From a virus, in UHGV virus genome UHGV-1885740: a stretch of 14,785 nt of DNA, one strand, 5' to 3'. The translations under genes were made by a program, and so were the position numbers. The notes below the pieces were generated by a model that worked only from the letters and a program-made list of their open reading frames with translations, ran no database searches and was not told where the DNA came from. Below, one piece after another: positions 3,269 through 14,785 of this stretch. Every line of letters starts with the position of its first letter. Position 1 is the stretch's first letter.

Positions 3269-3491
3269 TGCCACGTTAATTAATCCCTTTAGTGAAGATT
3301 TGAAGCCAGCCGCCTGGCGTGATGGATTCAATAACGAACGCTTTATTTTCAAGCCTGATCTTGAGGAATTTTATAACAATGGATCGAACAACAGCGGAGA
3401 TAATTTTTCTTGGGATGTGCGTGGTGATGGTACTCCTGGGGGCCATTGTAGATCGCGTCACTACTACCAGAAGGAAAGGGGGAGACGATGA
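3246..3491 (+). CDS. hypothetical protein (81 aa)
   Basis: ORF-track frame 3228-3491 begins at TTG; ATG at 3246 follows GAGAGGAA; its stop overlaps the next ATG as ATGA (3488-3491). Confidence 0.5.
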   Translation: MWANRLNNATLINPFSEDLKPAAWRDGFNNERFIFKPDLEEFYNNGSNNSGDNFSWDVRGDGTPGGHCRSRHYYQKERGRR

Positions 3492-3607
3492 CAACCAAGG
3501 ATAAGCCATGCACCGATAAGGTGCGCCGCGTTATGGTATGGCTTGAGATTATCGCCCTTGAAATATTGCTAGGCGTAGGGATGTACTTTATCGCTGTAAG
3601 TAACTAA
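3488..3607 (+). CDS. small membrane peptide (39 aa, MTTKDKPCTDKVRRVMVWLEIIALEILLGVGMYFIAVSN)
   Basis: Below the ORF-track size cutoff; ATG preceded by purine-rich AAGGAAAGGGGGAG; ATGA overlap with the upstream stop; terminator follows 5 nt after its stop. Confidence 0.45.
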   Translation: MTTKDKPCTDKVRRVMVWLEIIALEILLGVGMYFIAVSN

Positions 3608-7409: not shown

Positions 7410-7672
7410 ATGAAACGTCTGGATCAGCTTAAATTAGTTCAGTACATGGCCTACAGAATTCTTGAAGTCCAGAAAGGTAGCAAAAAAGAGGTTTGCGAGA
7501 AAGCTTATAAGATCTTCACTCGTAAAAAGATGATTGGATGTTACGCCAGACCAAAAAGGCTGACATCTTGGGGTACCTGGAAGAAGAGATCCGCCTTGAA
7601 GAGCAAGAAGAGATCCGCCGTAGTGAGGCAGATTATCAGGCAGCTTGGGAAAACTGGATGAGCAACAAATAA
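7410..7672 (+). CDS. hypothetical protein with an apparent frame change (frame 0 from 7410; -1 frame from about 7526 to TAA 7670-7672)
   Basis: The ORF-track frame (7410-7661) turns K/R-rich with rare AGA/AGG codons after about 7530, while the -1 frame reads DILGYLEEEIRLEEQEEIRRSEADYQAAWENWMSNK with ordinary codons. A T-AAA-AAG motif sits at 7523-7529, and a 15-bp direct repeat lies at 7581-7595 and 7606-7620. Alternatively two genes, the second starting at ATG 7538. Confidence 0.5.
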
Positions 7673-7691
7673 TACAACAAGGTGCACGGTC

Positions 7692-7717
7692 AGGGGCTTA
7701 AAGCCCCTTTCTTTTTG
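7692..7717 (+). terminator. intrinsic terminator closing the rightward gene module
   Basis: Stem AGGGGC/GCCCCT with loop TTAA followed by TTCTTTTTG. Confidence 0.8.
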
Positions 7718-8322
7718 TCTCCTCTTTTCCTACCACAAATGGCCCCGCCTGGCAAATGGAATAATCAACAAGCCAGCAATTAACCCCACTGTACAAACAT
7801 ACATATAAAATAACTATTGCATAATTTTTCATTGTGTGGTAGCAGGGCCATTTTTACACGTTTTTCCTTCCAAAATTGCACGTAATGCAGCATTTGCACA
7901 AAATTTAACCTGATGCATATCTTCAATAGCTTGTCAACAACTAAAAATTCTTATAAGTCATACACTTACATAACTACAAAAGCGTTTTCTACGTGAAAAA
8001 TCGAGTATAACTATAGCCGCCAGATCTCAGAATTTACGTACGCTCGCCATTCTATAGCCTGCTAAGCATTTATTCCAACCATAGAATAACGGAATAGTCA
8101 ATACCTGCATAAAATAATTATTCGTGTAAACTGCATAACATAAATCGGCCCAAGTGTCAACATTTTTCGTAAACAGTCTGGAATTGTCACGTTAGGTTAC
8201 CATAAGCAGAGAAATCTTTAGTCGTCTAATGTTTACTGTACGTTACTATACTAACTGGAATCATTAGATGACTAATAGAAAGATAAGAAATAATTAACAA
8301 TACAATTATTCTATCTGTAACA

Positions 8323-8593
8323 ATAAGGCAACTATGCAAACGAATGGCATGGCGCGACGGAGTCGCGACATAATATAAAAGCAGTAACCATCACCCCCGT
8401 GATAGTTTGTCTGCAATCTATTAATCAGATCATAGTTGCCTTGTATTCAGTTAATCATGACATAACAAGCAAGGCAACTATAGATCTGCTAATAGTTGCC
8501 CTGCTTTTATATTATGTCATGCTAATTATAATCAGTGCGATTATTGTCATGTATAATTATTGTCATGCAAACGAATGGCATGGCTTATCATTT
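8323..8593. repeat. nested inverted/direct repeat element (about 270 bp)
   Basis: AAGGCAACTAT at 8325-8335 and 8471-8481, with inverted copies at 8432-8442 and 8492-8501; 18-bp direct repeat TGCAAACGAATGGCATGG at 8335-8352 and 8566-8583; 18-bp perfect inverted repeat 8367-8384 / 8501-8518; palindrome CGCGAC-GGA-GTCGCG around 8354-8368. Confidence 0.8.
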
Positions 8594-8610
8594 TTGAGTA
8601 AATAATCTAT

Positions 8611-8716
8611 ACGTTAACAGTAAGCTATGTAAACTATTGGGAATGTAAACAGTAAAGGTCATGAACAGTAAGCGAGCGAATAGTAATAGCGTGAATAGTG
8701 ACAGCGTAAACAGTCA
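8611..8716 (+). repeat. tandem iteron-like array (about 7 units, 15-16 bp period, core GTAAACAGT / GAAYAGT)
   Basis: Cores at 8614, 8629, 8645, 8661, 8677, 8692 and 8706; further isolated copies in both orientations at about 8169, 8843, 8989 and 9719. Confidence 0.75.
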
Positions 8717-9298
8717 TGCATGTCAATTATGTTCAGTGTGTTTAATGTGCTTAAAGTGTCATATTATGTCAGACAAGTTTTTCTCCTCTTTGTCAAGTGC
8801 TGCATGAAAAATTTACAAGCTTGTATGGTAGCATTTTTGCGGCCCTGTTTACATTCAGTGTTGTATGTATAATCCTTGTTGTGTGGGCGTTTAGACGTCT
8901 GGACGGTCAGAAGTCTGCAGGTCAATATCTAATCTATTGGCTGCTAACTATATCCCCCCACAAATAATAAGAAATATAATTGTTATGTGCGTAAACAGTA
9001 ACCTATGTTATCAATCCCTGTATGTATCGCCAGTGGTGCGCATAATGGGTATTATGTTAAATTGCCCGTAATGATAAAGATTCTCACAATGATAGGTATT
9101 CTCATTCACCCTCACAAAATAGATTGCAAATGTTGTGCCACTGTGTGAACGGCCTCACCTATTAATTTGCCTCACTGCCTCGATATTTGAGAATTATTAT
9201 AAGAATGAGAAGTATTCCCATTCCGTCCGCCTGGCAGCACTCCAGTCGCTACCGCTCATGACAGGGCAGAACTGGGCCCATTCAGATATTTCTGACTG

Positions 9299-9567
9299 AC
9301 TCTTCAGGTCTGTGTGGGAAAAGACAACCTCTCCGGCGGGACAGGGGGATATCTGAGGAGAAATTGCAGGTCAATTAAAAAATTTACGTGGTGTATGAAG
9401 CGATCTTCAGGCAAGGTATGTATTATGGGATGAAACCCTCTTCAGGCAATGATATTTGTGGGTGTGATATTTGCTGGAAAGCCAGATATGACGGGACTCC
9501 CGGCGGGGCAGGGGTAGTACAGACAGGGAAAATATGGGGATGTAGTTGGGTAAATTGATCAGGCAGG
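9299..9567 (+). repeat. cluster of CTCTTCAGG-family motifs plus a GC-rich direct repeat CCGGCGGG(R)CAGGGG
   Basis: CTCTTCAGG at 9300-9308 and 9438-9446 (also 9850-9858 and 10500-10508); GATCTTCAGG 9402-9411; GATCAGGCAGG 9557-9567; CTCCGGCGGGACAGGGGG 9331-9348 against CTCCCGGCGGGGCAGGGG 9497-9514. Confidence 0.7.
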
Positions 9568-10210
9568 TAGAGTATGGAATATGTTACAGGTATGTTAAAT
9601 AGGGAGGCTGAATATCTGTAGGATTTGTGTGTAAAATCAAAGACTTAAGTGGTGTTGCGGTATTTTCTATAAATAATTCAAGTTTAATAGGTAATATTTG
9701 TCTCTATTCGCTTTGTGTGGTAAACAGATTCAGATGAGATTGGTTTACAAGTGTATACATAATATACAAATTAAAGATACAAGAAACCCCCTCCCCCTTC
9801 GGCTACCATTCACCTTTTCCTCTGACTGGTACTTAAACACTTATTCAGACTCTTCAGGTTATCACCCATATATCATATGGCAGTGACTGGTGTCCTCCGG
9901 CCCCTCTTTCGTCACCCGTCCGCTTCGCCATGCTAATGCCATAGCCAATGGTTCGGTTGTTCACCCTGTTCACTCAGGTGTATCTCCATACCCCTTCAAA
10001 CCGAAGAGAACAGAAAACCCGAATTACTCGGTAAAAGAAAAGAGAAGAACTTAATTTTATCAGGATAGGCAAGAATGTCAAGGCATGACTGCTCACTAAA
10101 CAAGCAAACAGTCATGTGTGGAAGGTAAGTGATTGTGGTGGTGGGAAATTTAGTTGAAAGATGTGTTATAGGTGCGCTTCCAGCACTTTGGCCGGGCAGC
10201 TAATTGTGCG

Positions 10211-10426
10211 TCAGTCCAGCGGTTCATCCTCTACTTCACTGAAATCAATGTTCATGGTCTCTTCCCAACCATCGATCTCAGCACAAGAGTGGAGTTCTTT
10301 AGGGTTTACTCCCAAAGCCTCAGCAACAGAGTCTATATTTAACACCTCTGGCAGGTATGATTCATCGAATTCAAGGTAAATCAGGCCACGAGTGTTGTCA
10401 GCTCCACCAAATATTTCTATCTTCAT
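10211..10426 (-). CDS. hypothetical acidic protein (71 aa)
   Basis: ATG with GAGGAG 5 nt upstream; ORF track; the overlapping plus-strand ORF is S/T-rich antisense. Confidence 0.65.
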   Translation of the reverse strand: MKIEIFGGADNTRGLIYLEFDESYLPEVLNIDSVAEALGVNPKELHSCAEIDGWEETMNIDFSEVEDEPLD

Positions 10427-11122: not shown

Positions 11123-11422
11123 CTATACCCACGAGGGCTTATCAAGGTTGGAGTAGCTGAAAGGTGTCAAAAGGTGACTGTCAAAATCTCTCAAACTATC
11201 CAAATCTTTTTCCTCGTCCTGACACCATCTGTGCCTACATTTGTTGTTGTAGTGCATGGAATGCATAGCGTTCTGCAACTTAACAGGCACAAGTGATTCA
11301 GGAGTAGATAGTATTGTTGGGTATGCCAGAACCACCTCAAACAGTGGAAACACATCGAAACTAAAGTCTACCTCTGCAGAGGTTGATGGCATGTAGGAGT
11401 ATTTAGCCGCCTTTGTAGACAT
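11123..11422 (-). CDS. hypothetical protein (99 aa)
   Basis: ORF-track frame 11123-11434 begins at GTG; ATG at 11422 follows GAGGTGG; closely follows the upstream gene. Confidence 0.65.
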   Translation of the reverse strand: MSTKAAKYSYMPSTSAEVDFSFDVFPLFEVVLAYPTILSTPESLVPVKLQNAMHSMHYNNKCRHRWCQDEEKDLDSLRDFDSHLLTPFSYSNLDKPSWV

Positions 11423-11790: not shown

Positions 11791-11810
11791 AGAGGGGCCC
11801 AAGCCCCTCT
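11791..11810 (-). terminator. GC hairpin, possible terminator or attenuator between leftward genes
   Basis: Palindrome AGAGGGGC-CCAA-GCCCCTCT; on the minus strand it is followed by TTTTAC, then the Shine-Dalgarno site of the next gene only about 15 nt away. Confidence 0.5.
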
Positions 11811-11818
11811 CTTTGTCA

Positions 11819-12124
11819 TTATTCTACAGAGCGTTTGAACAGAATGTCTGCCTCGGACATGTGCTCAACCTCTTCTTCGATTTTAGCTCGACGTTTTTCA
11901 GCCTCATAGCGAATATCGAACTCGGTAGCCACCAAAGATTTGATGAATTTAGGAGAATACAGGTGATCCTGCTTCTCAACGAGAATGATATCCTTAATGG
12001 CATCTTTCAGATCTTTAATCTGAAGTTGGAGTTCCACCAGTTCTTCGATTGTCTTGCGAAGGCGATCACGCTCTGCAGTGTCAGAAGGAAGAGAGGTGAA
12101 CAGTTCAACTTTAGATTTAGCCAT
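11819..12124 (-). CDS. hypothetical charged, probably helical protein (101 aa)
   Basis: ATG with AAGGAG 9 nt upstream; ORF track; heptad-like E/K/L-rich sequence. Confidence 0.75.
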   Translation of the reverse strand: MAKSKVELFTSLPSDTAERDRLRKTIEELVELQLQIKDLKDAIKDIILVEKQDHLYSPKFIKSLVATEFDIRYEAEKRRAKIEEEVEHMSEADILFKRSVE

Positions 12125-12152: not shown

Positions 12153-12404
12153 TTAACGTTCTACAAAAATACCGTTCAGTTCAATAACCAGGAATTTCTG
12201 GTCTTCACTGTCGTCTCGTGCCAGCACCTCACAGACGTATCGGTCATCTCCATCATCATCGCAGTCAAATACAAGACTGAGGACTTTATCATGATAAACC
12301 TTCGCCACTACCGCCTCGTAAGTATTGCCGATTGTGAATCCAAGATAATCTCCGATGCATTTGACAACAACATGGTCTCCAGCATTCAAGTCAATCTTCG
12401 TCAT
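12153..12404 (-). CDS. hypothetical acidic protein (83 aa)
   Basis: ORF-track frame 12153-12470 begins at TTG; ATG at 12404 follows AAGGGG; contains a DCDDDGDD acidic patch. Confidence 0.7.
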   Translation of the reverse strand: MTKIDLNAGDHVVVKCIGDYLGFTIGNTYEAVVAKVYHDKVLSLVFDCDDDGDDRYVCEVLARDDSEDQKFLVIELNGIFVER

Positions 12405-12550
12405 TACTGCGCCCCTTGGGTAATAATACTGTATGTAAAACTTTAACCAGAGATGTGAATAACGCCCCAAAACACACCGATAGCGCTAAAACAGACAAGG
12501 CCATCATTAAAGCTTCAGTAAAATCAGTCACTCCTCACCTCTTGTTAGTC

Positions 12551-12579
12551 ACTATACTGTCATTTATCTTTGCCGTCAA
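12551..12579 (-). promoter_or_regulatory. sigma70-like promoter on the minus strand (TTGACG-17-TATAGT)
   Basis: Reverse complement of 12574-12579 is TTGACG and of 12551-12556 is TATAGT; overlaps the 3' end of CDS 12560-12823; about 140-nt leader before ATG at 12404. Confidence 0.6.
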
Positions 12580-12823
12580 GAACTTTTTTAAATCTTTCAG
12601 GGATATCGCCTGTTCTTAGATAGCTCATGACCTCACAAGGTTCCCACTTGAATTTCTTACAAAGCAGGGCGGCTGAGATTGTTTCATTGCGAAAAGAAAG
12701 GATATTAATATCCCATTCTGAGAACCCCAACTTCCGAAGGGTAGCTACAGAAATCCTCACCGCAACCCAGCAGCAAAAACATGCAACAAACGCCACTGCT
12801 ATAACCCACATCAGGATGTTCAT
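12560..12823 (-). CDS. hypothetical membrane-anchored protein (87 aa, N-terminal transmembrane helix)
   Basis: ATG with GAGGTG 5 nt upstream; N-terminal WVIAVAFVACFCCWVAV; ORF track. Confidence 0.65.
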   Translation of the reverse strand: MNILMWVIAVAFVACFCCWVAVRISVATLRKLGFSEWDINILSFRNETISAALLCKKFKWEPCEVMSYLRTGDIPERFKKVLDGKDK

Positions 12824-12832
12824 ACAAGCACC

Positions 12833-12916
12833 TCACTGAAATACAAGACACAGTGTTAAGGTTACAGACCAGCAAATAATTAACAGTGCCGTTGCAACCT
12901 TGGCAAGATTTATCAT
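12833..12916 (-). CDS. small hydrophobic peptide (27 aa, MINLAKVATALLIICWSVTLTLCLVFQ)
   Basis: ATGA overlap with the stop of CDS 12913-13200; AGAGG 4 nt upstream; its stop overlaps the Shine-Dalgarno site of the next gene. Confidence 0.4.
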   Translation of the reverse strand: MINLAKVATALLIICWSVTLTLCLVFQ

Positions 12917-13200
12917 AGTGCCTCTAAGATTTCATATCCTTCGGGTCGGAATACAAGCCACTCCGTGGCTCCGTTTGGTCGATACGCTTTATACAGAACA
13001 ACCTGATCTCGGCACATGCACATAGCTACATAGTTTTCATCCACGCCTGCAGCCTGCATTGCAGCTTCTTCTCCGGCAACTGCTTTGCTTACAACCTCCT
13101 TAGTAGGCAGGTGTGCGATCAGCTCGTCACCATCATTAATTCCAAAATGGCTGAGTTCTCCATTGGTATCTTTAATCTTAATCTTAACCAGATCTTTCAT
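12913..13200 (-). CDS. hypothetical acidic protein (95 aa), member of a paralogous family
   Basis: ATG with GGAGGAAGA upstream; TAATG overlap with the upstream gene; N-terminus KIKIKD...DGDELIAHLP resembles 13880-14137. Confidence 0.75.
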   Translation of the reverse strand: MKDLVKIKIKDTNGELSHFGINDGDELIAHLPTKEVVSKAVAGEEAAMQAAGVDENYVAMCMCRDQVVLYKAYRPNGATEWLVFRPEGYEILEAL

Positions 13201-13529
13201 TAGTCTTCCTCCAGGTTCAAAGGACCTAAGATTTCATATGCCAGATTAGAAGTTACCAGAGGGTCTTCTGCATCTTTAGTATTATACCACCCGTGAATAA
13301 CCAGAGTCCCACTCTGTTTCATATCTAACTGGAACTGTTCTGCAGTTTCCTCATCCATCTCTAAGATCTCCATAAGGTACTTGATGTCAGGAAGGTATGC
13401 AGCTGTTACAGTTCCCTCTACCAGACCTTCGGGCCAACCTACATCCGGATGACAAGTAGGAACCAGATTGGTCAGCTTAATGGTGTACGCTTTTTCTGCA
13501 CGAGCCTTCAGTAACTGGTCAATCTTCAT
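13200..13529 (-). CDS. hypothetical acidic protein (109 aa)
   Basis: ATG with AGGAGGA upstream; TAATG overlap with the upstream gene; ORF track. Confidence 0.75.
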   Translation of the reverse strand: MKIDQLLKARAEKAYTIKLTNLVPTCHPDVGWPEGLVEGTVTAAYLPDIKYLMEILEMDEETAEQFQLDMKQSGTLVIHGWYNTKDAEDPLVTSNLAYEILGPLNLEED

Positions 13530-13879
13530 TATTCGTCCTCCTCTTCGGTGCCTGCTTCCAGTAATAAGTTAAGAATATCTTCTGCACAAGGCTCATAGAA
13601 CTCTTGGCCTTCATTATCGATGATTTTGTAGTCATCTCCGCGAATAATCAGAGGATCACTCTCAAAATTATCGAGACCTTTAACAACGACAACACGATCG
13701 ATTGCCATCATTGTAAGAACTTTATCGACATCTTTCTCTGCTACACCATACTGCAGCAGAATGTCTTTGGTAGGAGGAACAGCATCCACCACAACACCGT
13801 TACCAAAACCTTCCGGTAAGTTAGCTAAAATATCTTCCGGAACCACACTAACATCAAAACCAGTAATTTCTACTTTCAT
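13529..13879 (-). CDS. hypothetical acidic protein (116 aa), paralogous family
   Basis: ATG with GAGGTG upstream, immediately after the upstream stop; shares DIL..NLP...GFGN with 13880-14137. Confidence 0.75.
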   Translation of the reverse strand: MKVEITGFDVSVVPEDILANLPEGFGNGVVVDAVPPTKDILLQYGVAEKDVDKVLTMMAIDRVVVVKGLDNFESDPLIIRGDDYKIIDNEGQEFYEPCAEDILNLLLEAGTEEEDE

Positions 13880-14137
13880 TTACAGCACCTCTTCGTCAGC
13901 TACTTCATAAAAATGGCCTGGGATTGCAATAGCGTTCTCACCTTCACCTACAAACACAGTTCCGTCAAGAATCAACATCATAAGAGCTTCTGGAATATCC
14001 TCTTCCTGAACGTTGCCAAAACCTTTAATCAGCTCGTAGGTTGGAAGATTTACCTCTAAGATGTCACCATCTTTAGAGCGGAAATCAACACCATCCTGAA
14101 TCTCTGCCATTTCAAGGTTTTTCAGTTTAATCTTCAT
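13880..14137 (-). CDS. hypothetical acidic protein (85 aa), paralogous family
   Basis: ORF-track frame 13880-14140 begins at TTG; ATG at 14137 is 7 nt after GGGAGA; first gene after the promoter/operator at 14169-14208. Confidence 0.7.
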   Translation of the reverse strand: MKIKLKNLEMAEIQDGVDFRSKDGDILEVNLPTYELIKGFGNVQEEDIPEALMMLILDGTVFVGEGENAIAIPGHFYEVADEEVL

Positions 14138-14168
14138 CAATCAGTCTCCCGTCTTGTTAAGATGAAGG

Positions 14169-14208
14169 TATTATTTCACACAGGGTTGGTGTTGTCAACA
14201 CCTGTGTG
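14169..14208 (-). promoter_or_regulatory. sigma70-like promoter (TTGACA-18-ATAATA) embedded in a palindrome (candidate operator)
   Basis: Reverse complement of 14193-14198 is TTGACA and of 14169-14174 is ATAATA; inverted repeat CACACAGG (14177-14184) / CCTGTGTG (14201-14208) with inner TGTTG-T-CAACA overlapping the -35. Confidence 0.6.
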
Positions 14209-14216
14209 CAAGAAAA

Positions 14217-14612
14217 TTACTGAAACAGTGCGGATAAATTACCTTCTGGTGGGAACTTATCTGCCAAAAACGGTGTTAGCACAGTAGCCTTCTGAAGATC
14301 TGGGGTCCACTCGTTGTTCAGAACATCCCAGTAGTACGCAATGTTGCTGTGTGGGTGCCGCATTACGAACTTTTTCCCTTCGTAGTCATCTGAAACCTCT
14401 ACAGAAGAAATAACAACAGAATCTTCAAGGGTTTCTTCATAGAAAGATCCGCCTTCAAATTTCCAACGAGATGCAAGAGCCCCTGCCTTGAACGCTGCAG
14501 ATAACGGACTGTCGGCAAGAACATACATTTCTTGCACTCTGTCGCTGCGATCTTTGCTTCTTACGTTGTATACAGTATCTGAGCTATACTCAACACGGTA
14601 TAGGCTTACCAT
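14217..14612 (-). CDS. hypothetical protein (131 aa)
   Basis: ATG with GAGGAGGTG 5 nt upstream; TAATG overlap with the upstream gene; ORF track. Confidence 0.75.
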   Translation of the reverse strand: MVSLYRVEYSSDTVYNVRSKDRSDRVQEMYVLADSPLSAAFKAGALASRWKFEGGSFYEETLEDSVVISSVEVSDDYEGKKFVMRHPHSNIAYYWDVLNNEWTPDLQKATVLTPFLADKFPPEGNLSALFQ

Positions 14613-14785
14613 TACCGCACCTCCTCAATAACTTCCACATCTGAACCCACCACAAATGCAAAAGGACAGGTTTCATGAAAGACATCCGGATCGCCGCCAA
14701 GCTTGCTAACAATTTCTCCACCACTAATAAACACAAGCTCACCGATATTCATCAGATTGCTGAAATAGTATCCATAATGATTAAA
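14612..14785 (-). CDS. hypothetical protein, C-terminal 57 aa only (gene starts beyond window end)
   Basis: Minus-strand frame is open from the window edge to TAA (14612-14614), which overlaps the next ATG; reads ...FNHYGYYFSNLMNIGELVFISGGEIVSKLGGDPDVFHETCPFAFVVGSDVEVIEEVR. Confidence 0.55.
   Translation of the reverse strand, partial: FNHYGYYFSNLMNIGELVFISGGEIVSKLGGDPDVFHETCPFAFVVGSDVEVIEEVR

Follow-up and report, generated by a model that had tools for sequence, protein, structure and literature searches.

Gene content of the locus

We analyzed a stretch of viral DNA of 14,785 nt (UHGV virus genome UHGV-1885740; the whole stretch is called the window below) and concentrated on four small, adjacent genes at positions 12913-14137. 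Judged by sequence, the window is Vequintavirus DNA, from an rV5-like Escherichia coli myophage; over positions 12800-14785 it shares 99.3% identity with phage nomine, and ~119 phage/vequintavirus records match. All four genes are encoded by the minus strand and map onto the annotated rV5 record as open reading frames (ORFs) ORF150-153. They are labeled A-D in order, and E denotes the ortholog group of rV5 ORF146, which lies beyond the window. Locus tags (bas54) are those of phage Bas54.

13880-14137, minus strand: member A, 85 amino acids (aa), isoelectric point (pI) 4.08; rV5 ORF150, bas54_0149, phrog_12359
13529-13879, minus strand: member B, 116 aa, pI 4.05; rV5 ORF151, bas54_0148, phrog_12155
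13200-13529, minus strand: member C, 109 aa; rV5 ORF152, bas54_0147, phrog_12457
12913-13200, minus strand: member D, 95 aa; rV5 ORF153+154, bas54_0146, phrog_12794
L001 (rV5 record) 3307-3576, ~1 kb past the right end of the window and upstream of A-D: member E; rV5 ORF146, bas54_0153, phrog_11868

An earlier reading of the DNA letters alone (the first-pass annotation) had described small acidic proteins here. Family members indeed have pI values of 4.05-4.8 and net charges of -6 to -20, but their acidity is not distinctive, as 10 of the 11 small proteins in the stretch are acidic.

In the rV5 record (L001 5680-5950), member D is split into two overlapping ORFs, ORF153 and ORF154, whereas the other genomes examined carry a single intact 95-aa gene. 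The split is probably a frameshift or a sequencing error in the 2006 record.

A-E as one paralogous family

Raw pairwise scores among the members are low (22-29 bits, 23-32% identity), shallow profile comparisons gave 36% for the best pair, and PHROGs leaves the genes unmerged, all of which would fit a resemblance due to chance or composition between unrelated ORFans. Our comparisons effectively refute this explanation. In Smith-Waterman alignments set against 400 composition-preserving shuffles, the A/B/D pairs were the top 3 of 45 neighborhood pairs (Gumbel p = 1.8e-4, 1.0e-3, and 1.3e-3), and equally acidic neighbors did not match. When a hidden Markov model (HMM) was built from three of the four gene families, the missing gene came first among 184 six-frame window segments each time, with E-values of 5.5e-7 for B, 1.1e-4 for D, 1.3e-3 for C, and 0.03 for A and runners-up at 0.6-1.4. 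Member C was admitted to the family because this leave-one-out search recovered it (E = 1.3e-3; runner-up 0.63).

Profile-profile alignment with hhalign was informative only once distant orthologs had been added; with shallow alignments (isolates at ≥80% identity) A-B reached 36% and the other pairs <5%. With ortholog-group profiles, the probabilities rose to 97.5% for A-B, 96.3% for A-E, 92.0% for B-D, 90.8% for B-C, 70.6% for A-D, and 62.7% for D-E. The ten intra-family pairs were the top 10 of 55, the strongest at 90-97.5% over nearly their full length, and controls from six neighboring families at equal depth stayed at ≤2.3%. Bridging sequences also join the ortholog groups in plain BLASTP. 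The family HMM matched A-D alone in the window, A-D plus E in each vequintavirus locus (2280 ORFs), and exactly 5 of the 1147 ORFs in the whole Bas54 genome, where the next match had E = 1.6.

Together, these comparisons indicate that A-D, with E, are ancient paralogs of one previously unlinked family. The tandem family proposed in the first-pass annotation thus proved real under both pairwise and profile alignment, although it had counted only the three genes A, B, and D; the intervening gene 13200-13529 belongs as well. Across 26 diverse members, three residues are near-invariant: G24 (before β2), P32 (in LPT, after β2), and Y77 (in YE[IV], β5). The N-terminal blocks that the annotation had picked out by eye held up in part. 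Similarity among the three genes exceeds chance, and the DGD-x-L-x3-LPT block is homologous between A and D; GFGN, in contrast, occupies non-homologous positions, in the α1-α2 loop of A and before β2 of B, where it aligns with SKDG. Gene 10211-10426, described there as beginning similarly, was rejected as a member: only its N-terminal MKIEI aligns (hhalign ≤1.4% over 6 columns), the family HMM does not match it at E ≤ 1, and its shuffle p values of 0.005-0.1 were obtained against member C only.

A Pfam search placed A-D in no family, and a profile search of PDB sequences returned no relative. In PHROGs, each of A-D matches its own narrow family end to end (E = 1e-55 to 1e-75) with the function label "unknown," and ORF146-type relatives match phrog_11868. 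The profile comparisons support treating PHROGs 12359, 12155, 12457, 12794, and 11868, kept apart in that database, as one superfamily.

Two labels found on relatives did not hold. P0063 carries the source label Obg C-terminal domain (DUF1967), but 26 members run through hmmscan gave no match to this domain at E ≤ 0.05; P0063 is a D-like member with an insertion. The ORF146 paralog bears a ribosome hibernation or "sigma 54 modulation factor" label in some GenBank records (the latter in S127 BCL3 and ECP32), and the ORF146-type members among the 26 had no Pfam match, Ribosomal_S30AE (PF02482) included. The true phage HPF/RaiA homologue is a separate gene two positions upstream of ORF146.

Predicted fold

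AlphaFold2 models were obtained for A (predicted local distance difference test score 85.5, predicted template modeling score 0.73) and C (81.7 and 0.74). Both show the same order of elements, β-β-α-α-β-β-β, with a long loop after strand 1. The structure prediction that the first-pass annotation proposed as a test for a shared fold thus gave one predicted topology for A and C. We assign the predicted fold, with moderate confidence, to a five-stranded SH3-like small β-barrel with a two-helix hairpin between strands 2 and 3. Individual members depart from this plan: B has an additional acidic, C-terminal, helix-like tail (EFYEPCAEDILNLLLEAGTEEEDE), C has an additional N-terminal helix, and a natural variant of D (P0032) lacks exactly the 8-aa loop by which D exceeds its paralogs.

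Compared with known SH3-like barrels (SH3, KOW/L24, PsaE, and Tudor-type), the predicted structures give marginal scores at 5-15% sequence identity. Unlike SH3, the family would carry the two-helix hairpin at the position of the n-Src loop and a loop of ~20 residues after strand 1. We identified no motif for binding proline peptides or nucleic acids in the family. Among the predicted viral structures of BFVD, a search gave one confident neighbor, A0A6M5CA15 of Vibrio phage Vc1 (template modeling score 0.76, 33% identity, 86 aa), which resembles the family structurally but comes from an unrelated host genus and carries no annotation.

Promoter and putative translational coupling

The following elements precede A on the same strand.

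14170-14198, minus strand: predicted sigma-70-type promoter (rV5 "P150"), TTGACA, 17-nt spacer, TG-n-AATAAT
14170-14212, minus strand: 8-bp inverted repeat, CACACAGG(16 nt)CCTGTGTG, bracketing the -35 element of P150

In a consensus scan, P150 matched 11 of 12 consensus positions and the TG extension, and it coincides with a promoter annotated for rV5. P150 is conserved in nine further vequintavirus loci, including one with a divergent A allele, and the inverted repeat is conserved in ten vequintavirus loci. This repeat may act as an operator or form an RNA hairpin where the upstream operon ends.

The genes follow one another closely, with the junctions TAAATG between A and B (adjacent, no overlap) and TAATG at both B/C and C/D. 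Each downstream start is preceded by a GAGG/GGAG Shine-Dalgarno sequence built from the codons for the acidic C terminus of the upstream gene product, and the TAATG/TAAATG coupling is conserved across isolates and in a distant relative (L009). These features support the translationally coupled operon of the first-pass annotation, with its conserved sigma-70-type promoter. Its account of the junctions as TAATG or ATGA overlaps needs amending: two are coupled TAATG junctions, none is ATGA, and A/B does not overlap.

Downstream of D, the predicted transcription unit continues through genes that do not belong to the family; none of those between 11791 and 12823 matched the family HMM.

12560-12823, minus strand: membrane protein, same transcription unit, non-member
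12391-12531, minus strand: 46-aa ORF, same transcription unit, non-member
12153-12404, minus strand: 83-aa protein, same transcription unit, non-member
11819-12124, minus strand: 101-aa phrog_639 "transcriptional regulator," same transcription unit, non-member
11791-11810, minus strand: terminator-like hairpin, at the site where the rV5 record places a rho-independent terminator after ORF158

Distribution and evolution

All four genes were seen directly in 11 of the 11 vequintavirus loci examined, and queries with A and B each found one place per record in ~119 isolate genomes. A tblastn search of isolated phages and two word-indexed searches (5.8 billion proteins) returned vequintavirus-type sequences only. 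Searching 1.84 billion representatives exhaustively with an HMM gave 14 matches, including distant orthologs of each lineage (P0046-P0050, P0054, P0055). Among these matches, the giant proteins P0051-53 were rejected as spurious, being Calx-beta/Ig-repeat surface proteins that score by summed repeats.

The distant relative L009 carries A-B-C-D in the same order (85, 115, 100, and 110 aa) together with E, at ~40-50% identity. In L012-14, A-B-D and E are present and C is missing; L009 and L012-14 together span 25-50% identity. The E ortholog in both clades is 89-91 aa long and lies upstream. In other Vequintavirinae (Mydovirus, Seunavirus, Certrevirus, and the unclassified A7_1 and TH18), ~14-kb loci around the ORF158 homologue showed no synteny and no member, and a search of viral contigs seeded with P0049 found no related locus. 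Members occur only in Vequintavirus and in a small number of uncultured relatives.

Two database entries deserve separate mention. P0041, from a 657-bp metagenome contig, is a 98-aa chimera of a DUF7399 N terminus and the C-terminal half of member C, and may have arisen by recombination or as an artifact of assembly. Eighteen GenBank records (MG0656xx) labeled as Campylobacter jejuni phages are 90-99% identical to E. coli vequintaviruses in this region; the labels probably reflect contamination or mislabeling.

Across ten vequintavirus loci, the ratio of nonsynonymous to synonymous substitution rates (dN/dS) was 0.23 for A, 0.16 for B, 0.07 for C, and 0.05 for D, compared with 0.012-0.13 for neighboring genes. 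Because these values lie between 0.05 and 0.23, we regard A-D as real, selected genes, and all four are under purifying selection. Rates spread about four-fold, with A and B the fastest-evolving members (A most) and D the slowest. Variable sites in A were somewhat denser in the long loop and helix 1 (0.60-0.71) than elsewhere (~0.5), a weak trend on which we do not rely.

Member A also exists in a second form. In L008 (6001-6249) and in MiataMamis (PP925834), an 82-aa allele is 53% identical to that of the window, while the flanking ORF149 and B are 100% and 97% identical and the promoter and flanks are 97-100% identical. A divergent A between near-identical flanks marks a replacement of the allele of a single gene, and the near-identity of promoter and flanks places the recombination boundary close to the start codon of A. 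One uncultured vequintavirus contig, whose DNA polymerase is 99% identical to that of isolates, has an extra, lone B-like gene in a variable region downstream of the polymerase; this gene was absent from all isolates.

The four lineages are separate, their order is kept in L009, and copy number is fixed in isolates. For these reasons the family appears old and stable, now and then gaining or losing a gene or exchanging an allele, rather than rapidly duplicating. The rapid duplication in an arms race that the first-pass annotation had proposed thus finds no support, and the copy-number variation it had suggested looking for did not appear among isolates, where the number is fixed; a whole genome (Bas54) holds five members. 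The sole arms race-like signal comes from member A, with its fastest rate and swapped allele.

Gene order and coupling bear on what we regard as the main rival to our own reading, which is that each protein binds a host factor of its own. The rival holds that A-D, perhaps with E, are subunits of one hetero-oligomeric complex whose stoichiometry is fixed by coupling. SH3-like and Sm-like barrels often form rings or dimers, and the barrel-like predicted fold, the long separate retention of each lineage, and the fixed A-B-C-D order with TAATG/TAAATG coupling across isolates and L009 would all suit such an assembly. Yet L012-14 lack C, a lone B-like copy stands at another locus in one uncultured vequintavirus, members differ about four-fold in rate, and A has been exchanged for a 53%-identical allele beside a 97%-identical B, which speaks against a tightly co-adapted A-B interface. 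We consider a complex unlikely, if the strongest of the competing explanations.

Transposon insertion data from Bas54

A preprint (HIDEN-SEQ) reports transposon sequencing (Tn-seq) on Bas54, that is, phage MaxBurger (bioRxiv 10.1101/2025.11.20.689424). The K-12 values below are those of its Extended Data Table 8, and the clinical isolate is strain CFE311, since the comparison command line names strain 311. Sheets S6 and S7 of this table contain identical numbers, and the sheet titled K-12 vs CFE303 names sample 311. The tabulated values for the family members are as follows, with log2FC denoting log2 fold change (bioRxiv 10.1101/2025.11.20.689424).

Member A, bas54_0149: K-12 TA saturation 1.0, Non-essential; CFE311 log2FC +0.40, adjusted p = 1
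Member B, bas54_0148: saturation 0.83, Non-essential; log2FC +0.06, adjusted p = 1
Member C, bas54_0147: saturation 0.86, Non-essential; log2FC -0.04, adjusted p = 1
Member D, bas54_0146: saturation 0.81, Non-essential; log2FC +0.32, adjusted p = 1
Member E, bas54_0153: saturation 0.69, Intermediate; log2FC -2.78, not significant

Within these extended data, A-D are accessory genes, none of them individually required in K-12 or in CFE311. An anti-defense function would be expected to deplete mutants in a defense-carrying host relative to K-12, and A-D were not depleted in the one such host, CFE311, to which the table applies. Because insertions hit single genes, redundancy between paralogs could mask a phenotype.

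Neighboring genes behave differently in the same data. The ortholog of bas54_0140 and those of two genes directly upstream of P150 are found in the window.

11123-11422, minus strand: bas54_0140 ortholog, 99 aa, ~1.5 kb downstream of A-D
14217-14612, minus strand: bas54_0150 ortholog, directly upstream of P150
14612-14785, minus strand: bas54_0151 ortholog, cut by the window end

According to the preprint, bas54_0140 is required against DS-28, a predicted defense system of CFE311 (log2FC -5.48), and bas54_0150-0152 are completely depleted in CFE311, with log2FC of -6.2 to -7.2 and an adjusted p of 0 (bioRxiv 10.1101/2025.11.20.689424). On these values, bas54_0150-0152 may form a counter-defense or host-range operon. 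Like A-D, bas54_0140 lies in this early region and encodes a small, accessory protein without an assigned fold; unlike them, it has no family HMM match and is listed as conditionally essential in CFE311.

These results bear on the function suggested in the first-pass annotation, inhibition of host DNA-binding or defense proteins by a family that grew through rapid duplication; A-D would then be DNA mimics or inhibitors of the Ocr/ArdA/Arn kind. In its favor, a putative early operon encodes them, and they are small and cytoplasmic, with acidic pI values of 4.05-4.8; A evolves fastest and has undergone allele replacement, and a proven anti-defense gene, bas54_0140, which acts against DS-28, lies 1.5 kb downstream. 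Against this, neither sequence nor fold comparison linked the proteins to Ocr, ArdA, Arn, Ugi, or any PADLOC-era or anti-defense-related family, the acidity is regional rather than specific to the family, and the duplication appears ancient, with fixed copy number and purifying selection. A-D were also not required in CFE311 in the tabulated comparison, though neighboring genes were. We therefore judge this explanation improbable, although it may apply in other hosts.

A further possibility is that A-D act on processes of the phage itself, namely early-to-middle transcription, replication, or the co-encoded ribosome hibernation factor. The operon also encodes the phrog_639 "transcriptional regulator," paralog E lies near the HPF/RaiA homologue, and E is the member scored Intermediate (0.69) in the preprint tables, with a log2FC in CFE311 (-2.78) that is not significant. 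These links are of gene neighborhood, however; A-D are listed as fully dispensable on K-12, and direct binding of nucleic acid by acidic barrels would be unlikely. Such a role seems rather doubtful to us.

Other features of the window

Between converging plus- and minus-strand gene blocks, at ~7690-10210, lies a 2.5-kb stretch without a convincing ORF, in which the G+C fraction falls to 0.35 (8000-9000). Two repeats within it are perfect, one direct and 20 nt long (8334, 8565), the other inverted and 18 nt long (8367-8384, 8501-8518). The stretch is 95-97% identical to an intergenic region of Bas54 for which the preprint reports zero transposon insertions (bioRxiv 10.1101/2025.11.20.689424). 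Scans of the window for tRNA genes and Rfam families, this stretch included, found none. The stretch could be a replication origin or a locus for an untranslated RNA.

On the plus strand, 7410-7669 matches bas54_0133 (87 aa) in two reading frames with a break near 7527, which implies that either this genome or that of Bas54 carries a frameshift. The 139-aa bas54_0134 has no counterpart in the window.

Proposed function and comparison with known systems

In our preferred reading, which we hold with evenly balanced confidence, A-D are old paralogs in a coupled early operon and encode accessory proteins that each bind a different host factor. Host RNA polymerase would transcribe the genes early, and their translation would be coupled. 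The resulting four accessory early proteins would each have diverged to a different job, most likely by binding a different host protein, in the service of host takeover or counter-defense. They would matter only in particular hosts or be partly redundant, and a host-specific or redundant role would account for the dispensability of the single genes in the laboratory. The duplication itself would be old and stable, with no recent arms-race expansion and allele turnover in A only.

Several points weigh against this reading. As far as the preprint tables go, A-D show no host-specific requirement in the one readable clinical isolate. The early timing is inferred from the promoter consensus, and our literature search found no vequintavirus transcript data. 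No homology to characterized proteins emerged from Pfam, PHROGs, or PDB-sequence profile searches, and the only structural relative in BFVD is itself uncharacterized. The SH3-like fold assignment is weak, and because both model alignments included paralogs, the A and C models are not independent proofs of homology. Acidity, being common to unrelated neighbors, is no hallmark of the family and no pointer to DNA mimicry. Finally, the conserved order and coupling discussed above would also be at home in a complex.

A bolder form of the host-binding reading, which we regard as speculative and unlikely, is that of a "binder cassette," in which one SH3-like scaffold would have yielded five specificities, each neutralizing a different host factor or defense protein. 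Here A would be the contested specificity, which would explain the replacement of its allele, and redundancy would hide single-gene phenotypes. If true, the cassette would define a structurally new class of proteins by which phages interfere with their hosts; a literature search by protein accession and for SH3-like anti-defense proteins found nothing on the family.

Vequintaviruses are broad-host-range E. coli phages used for biocontrol and therapy, and about two-thirds of their genes are without known function. Our analysis turns five anonymous "unknown" PHROGs into one testable family with a predicted fold, tied to Tn-seq data. Single-gene screens will probably miss the function of the family, since one paralog may stand in for another. 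Large lytic phages commonly carry tandem families of paralogous, small accessory early genes, and the family described here is an ordinary feature of this type, useful for annotation, with no surprising mechanism.

Known parallels include three inhibitors that phages make early, all of them small and acidic: Ocr of T7, Arn of T4, and Ugi of PBS2. For the DNA-mimic anti-restriction proteins (Ocr, ArdA, and Arn), we found no sequence or fold homology to the members. Unlike Ocr, Arn, and Ugi, A-D show no restriction- or defense-related phenotype in the tabulated Tn-seq data, and no sequence or fold similarity to these inhibitors was detected. Like these inhibitors, they are nevertheless small, acidic, cytoplasmic, and probably expressed early; Ocr, Arn, and Ugi are single genes, whereas A-D belong to a family of five.

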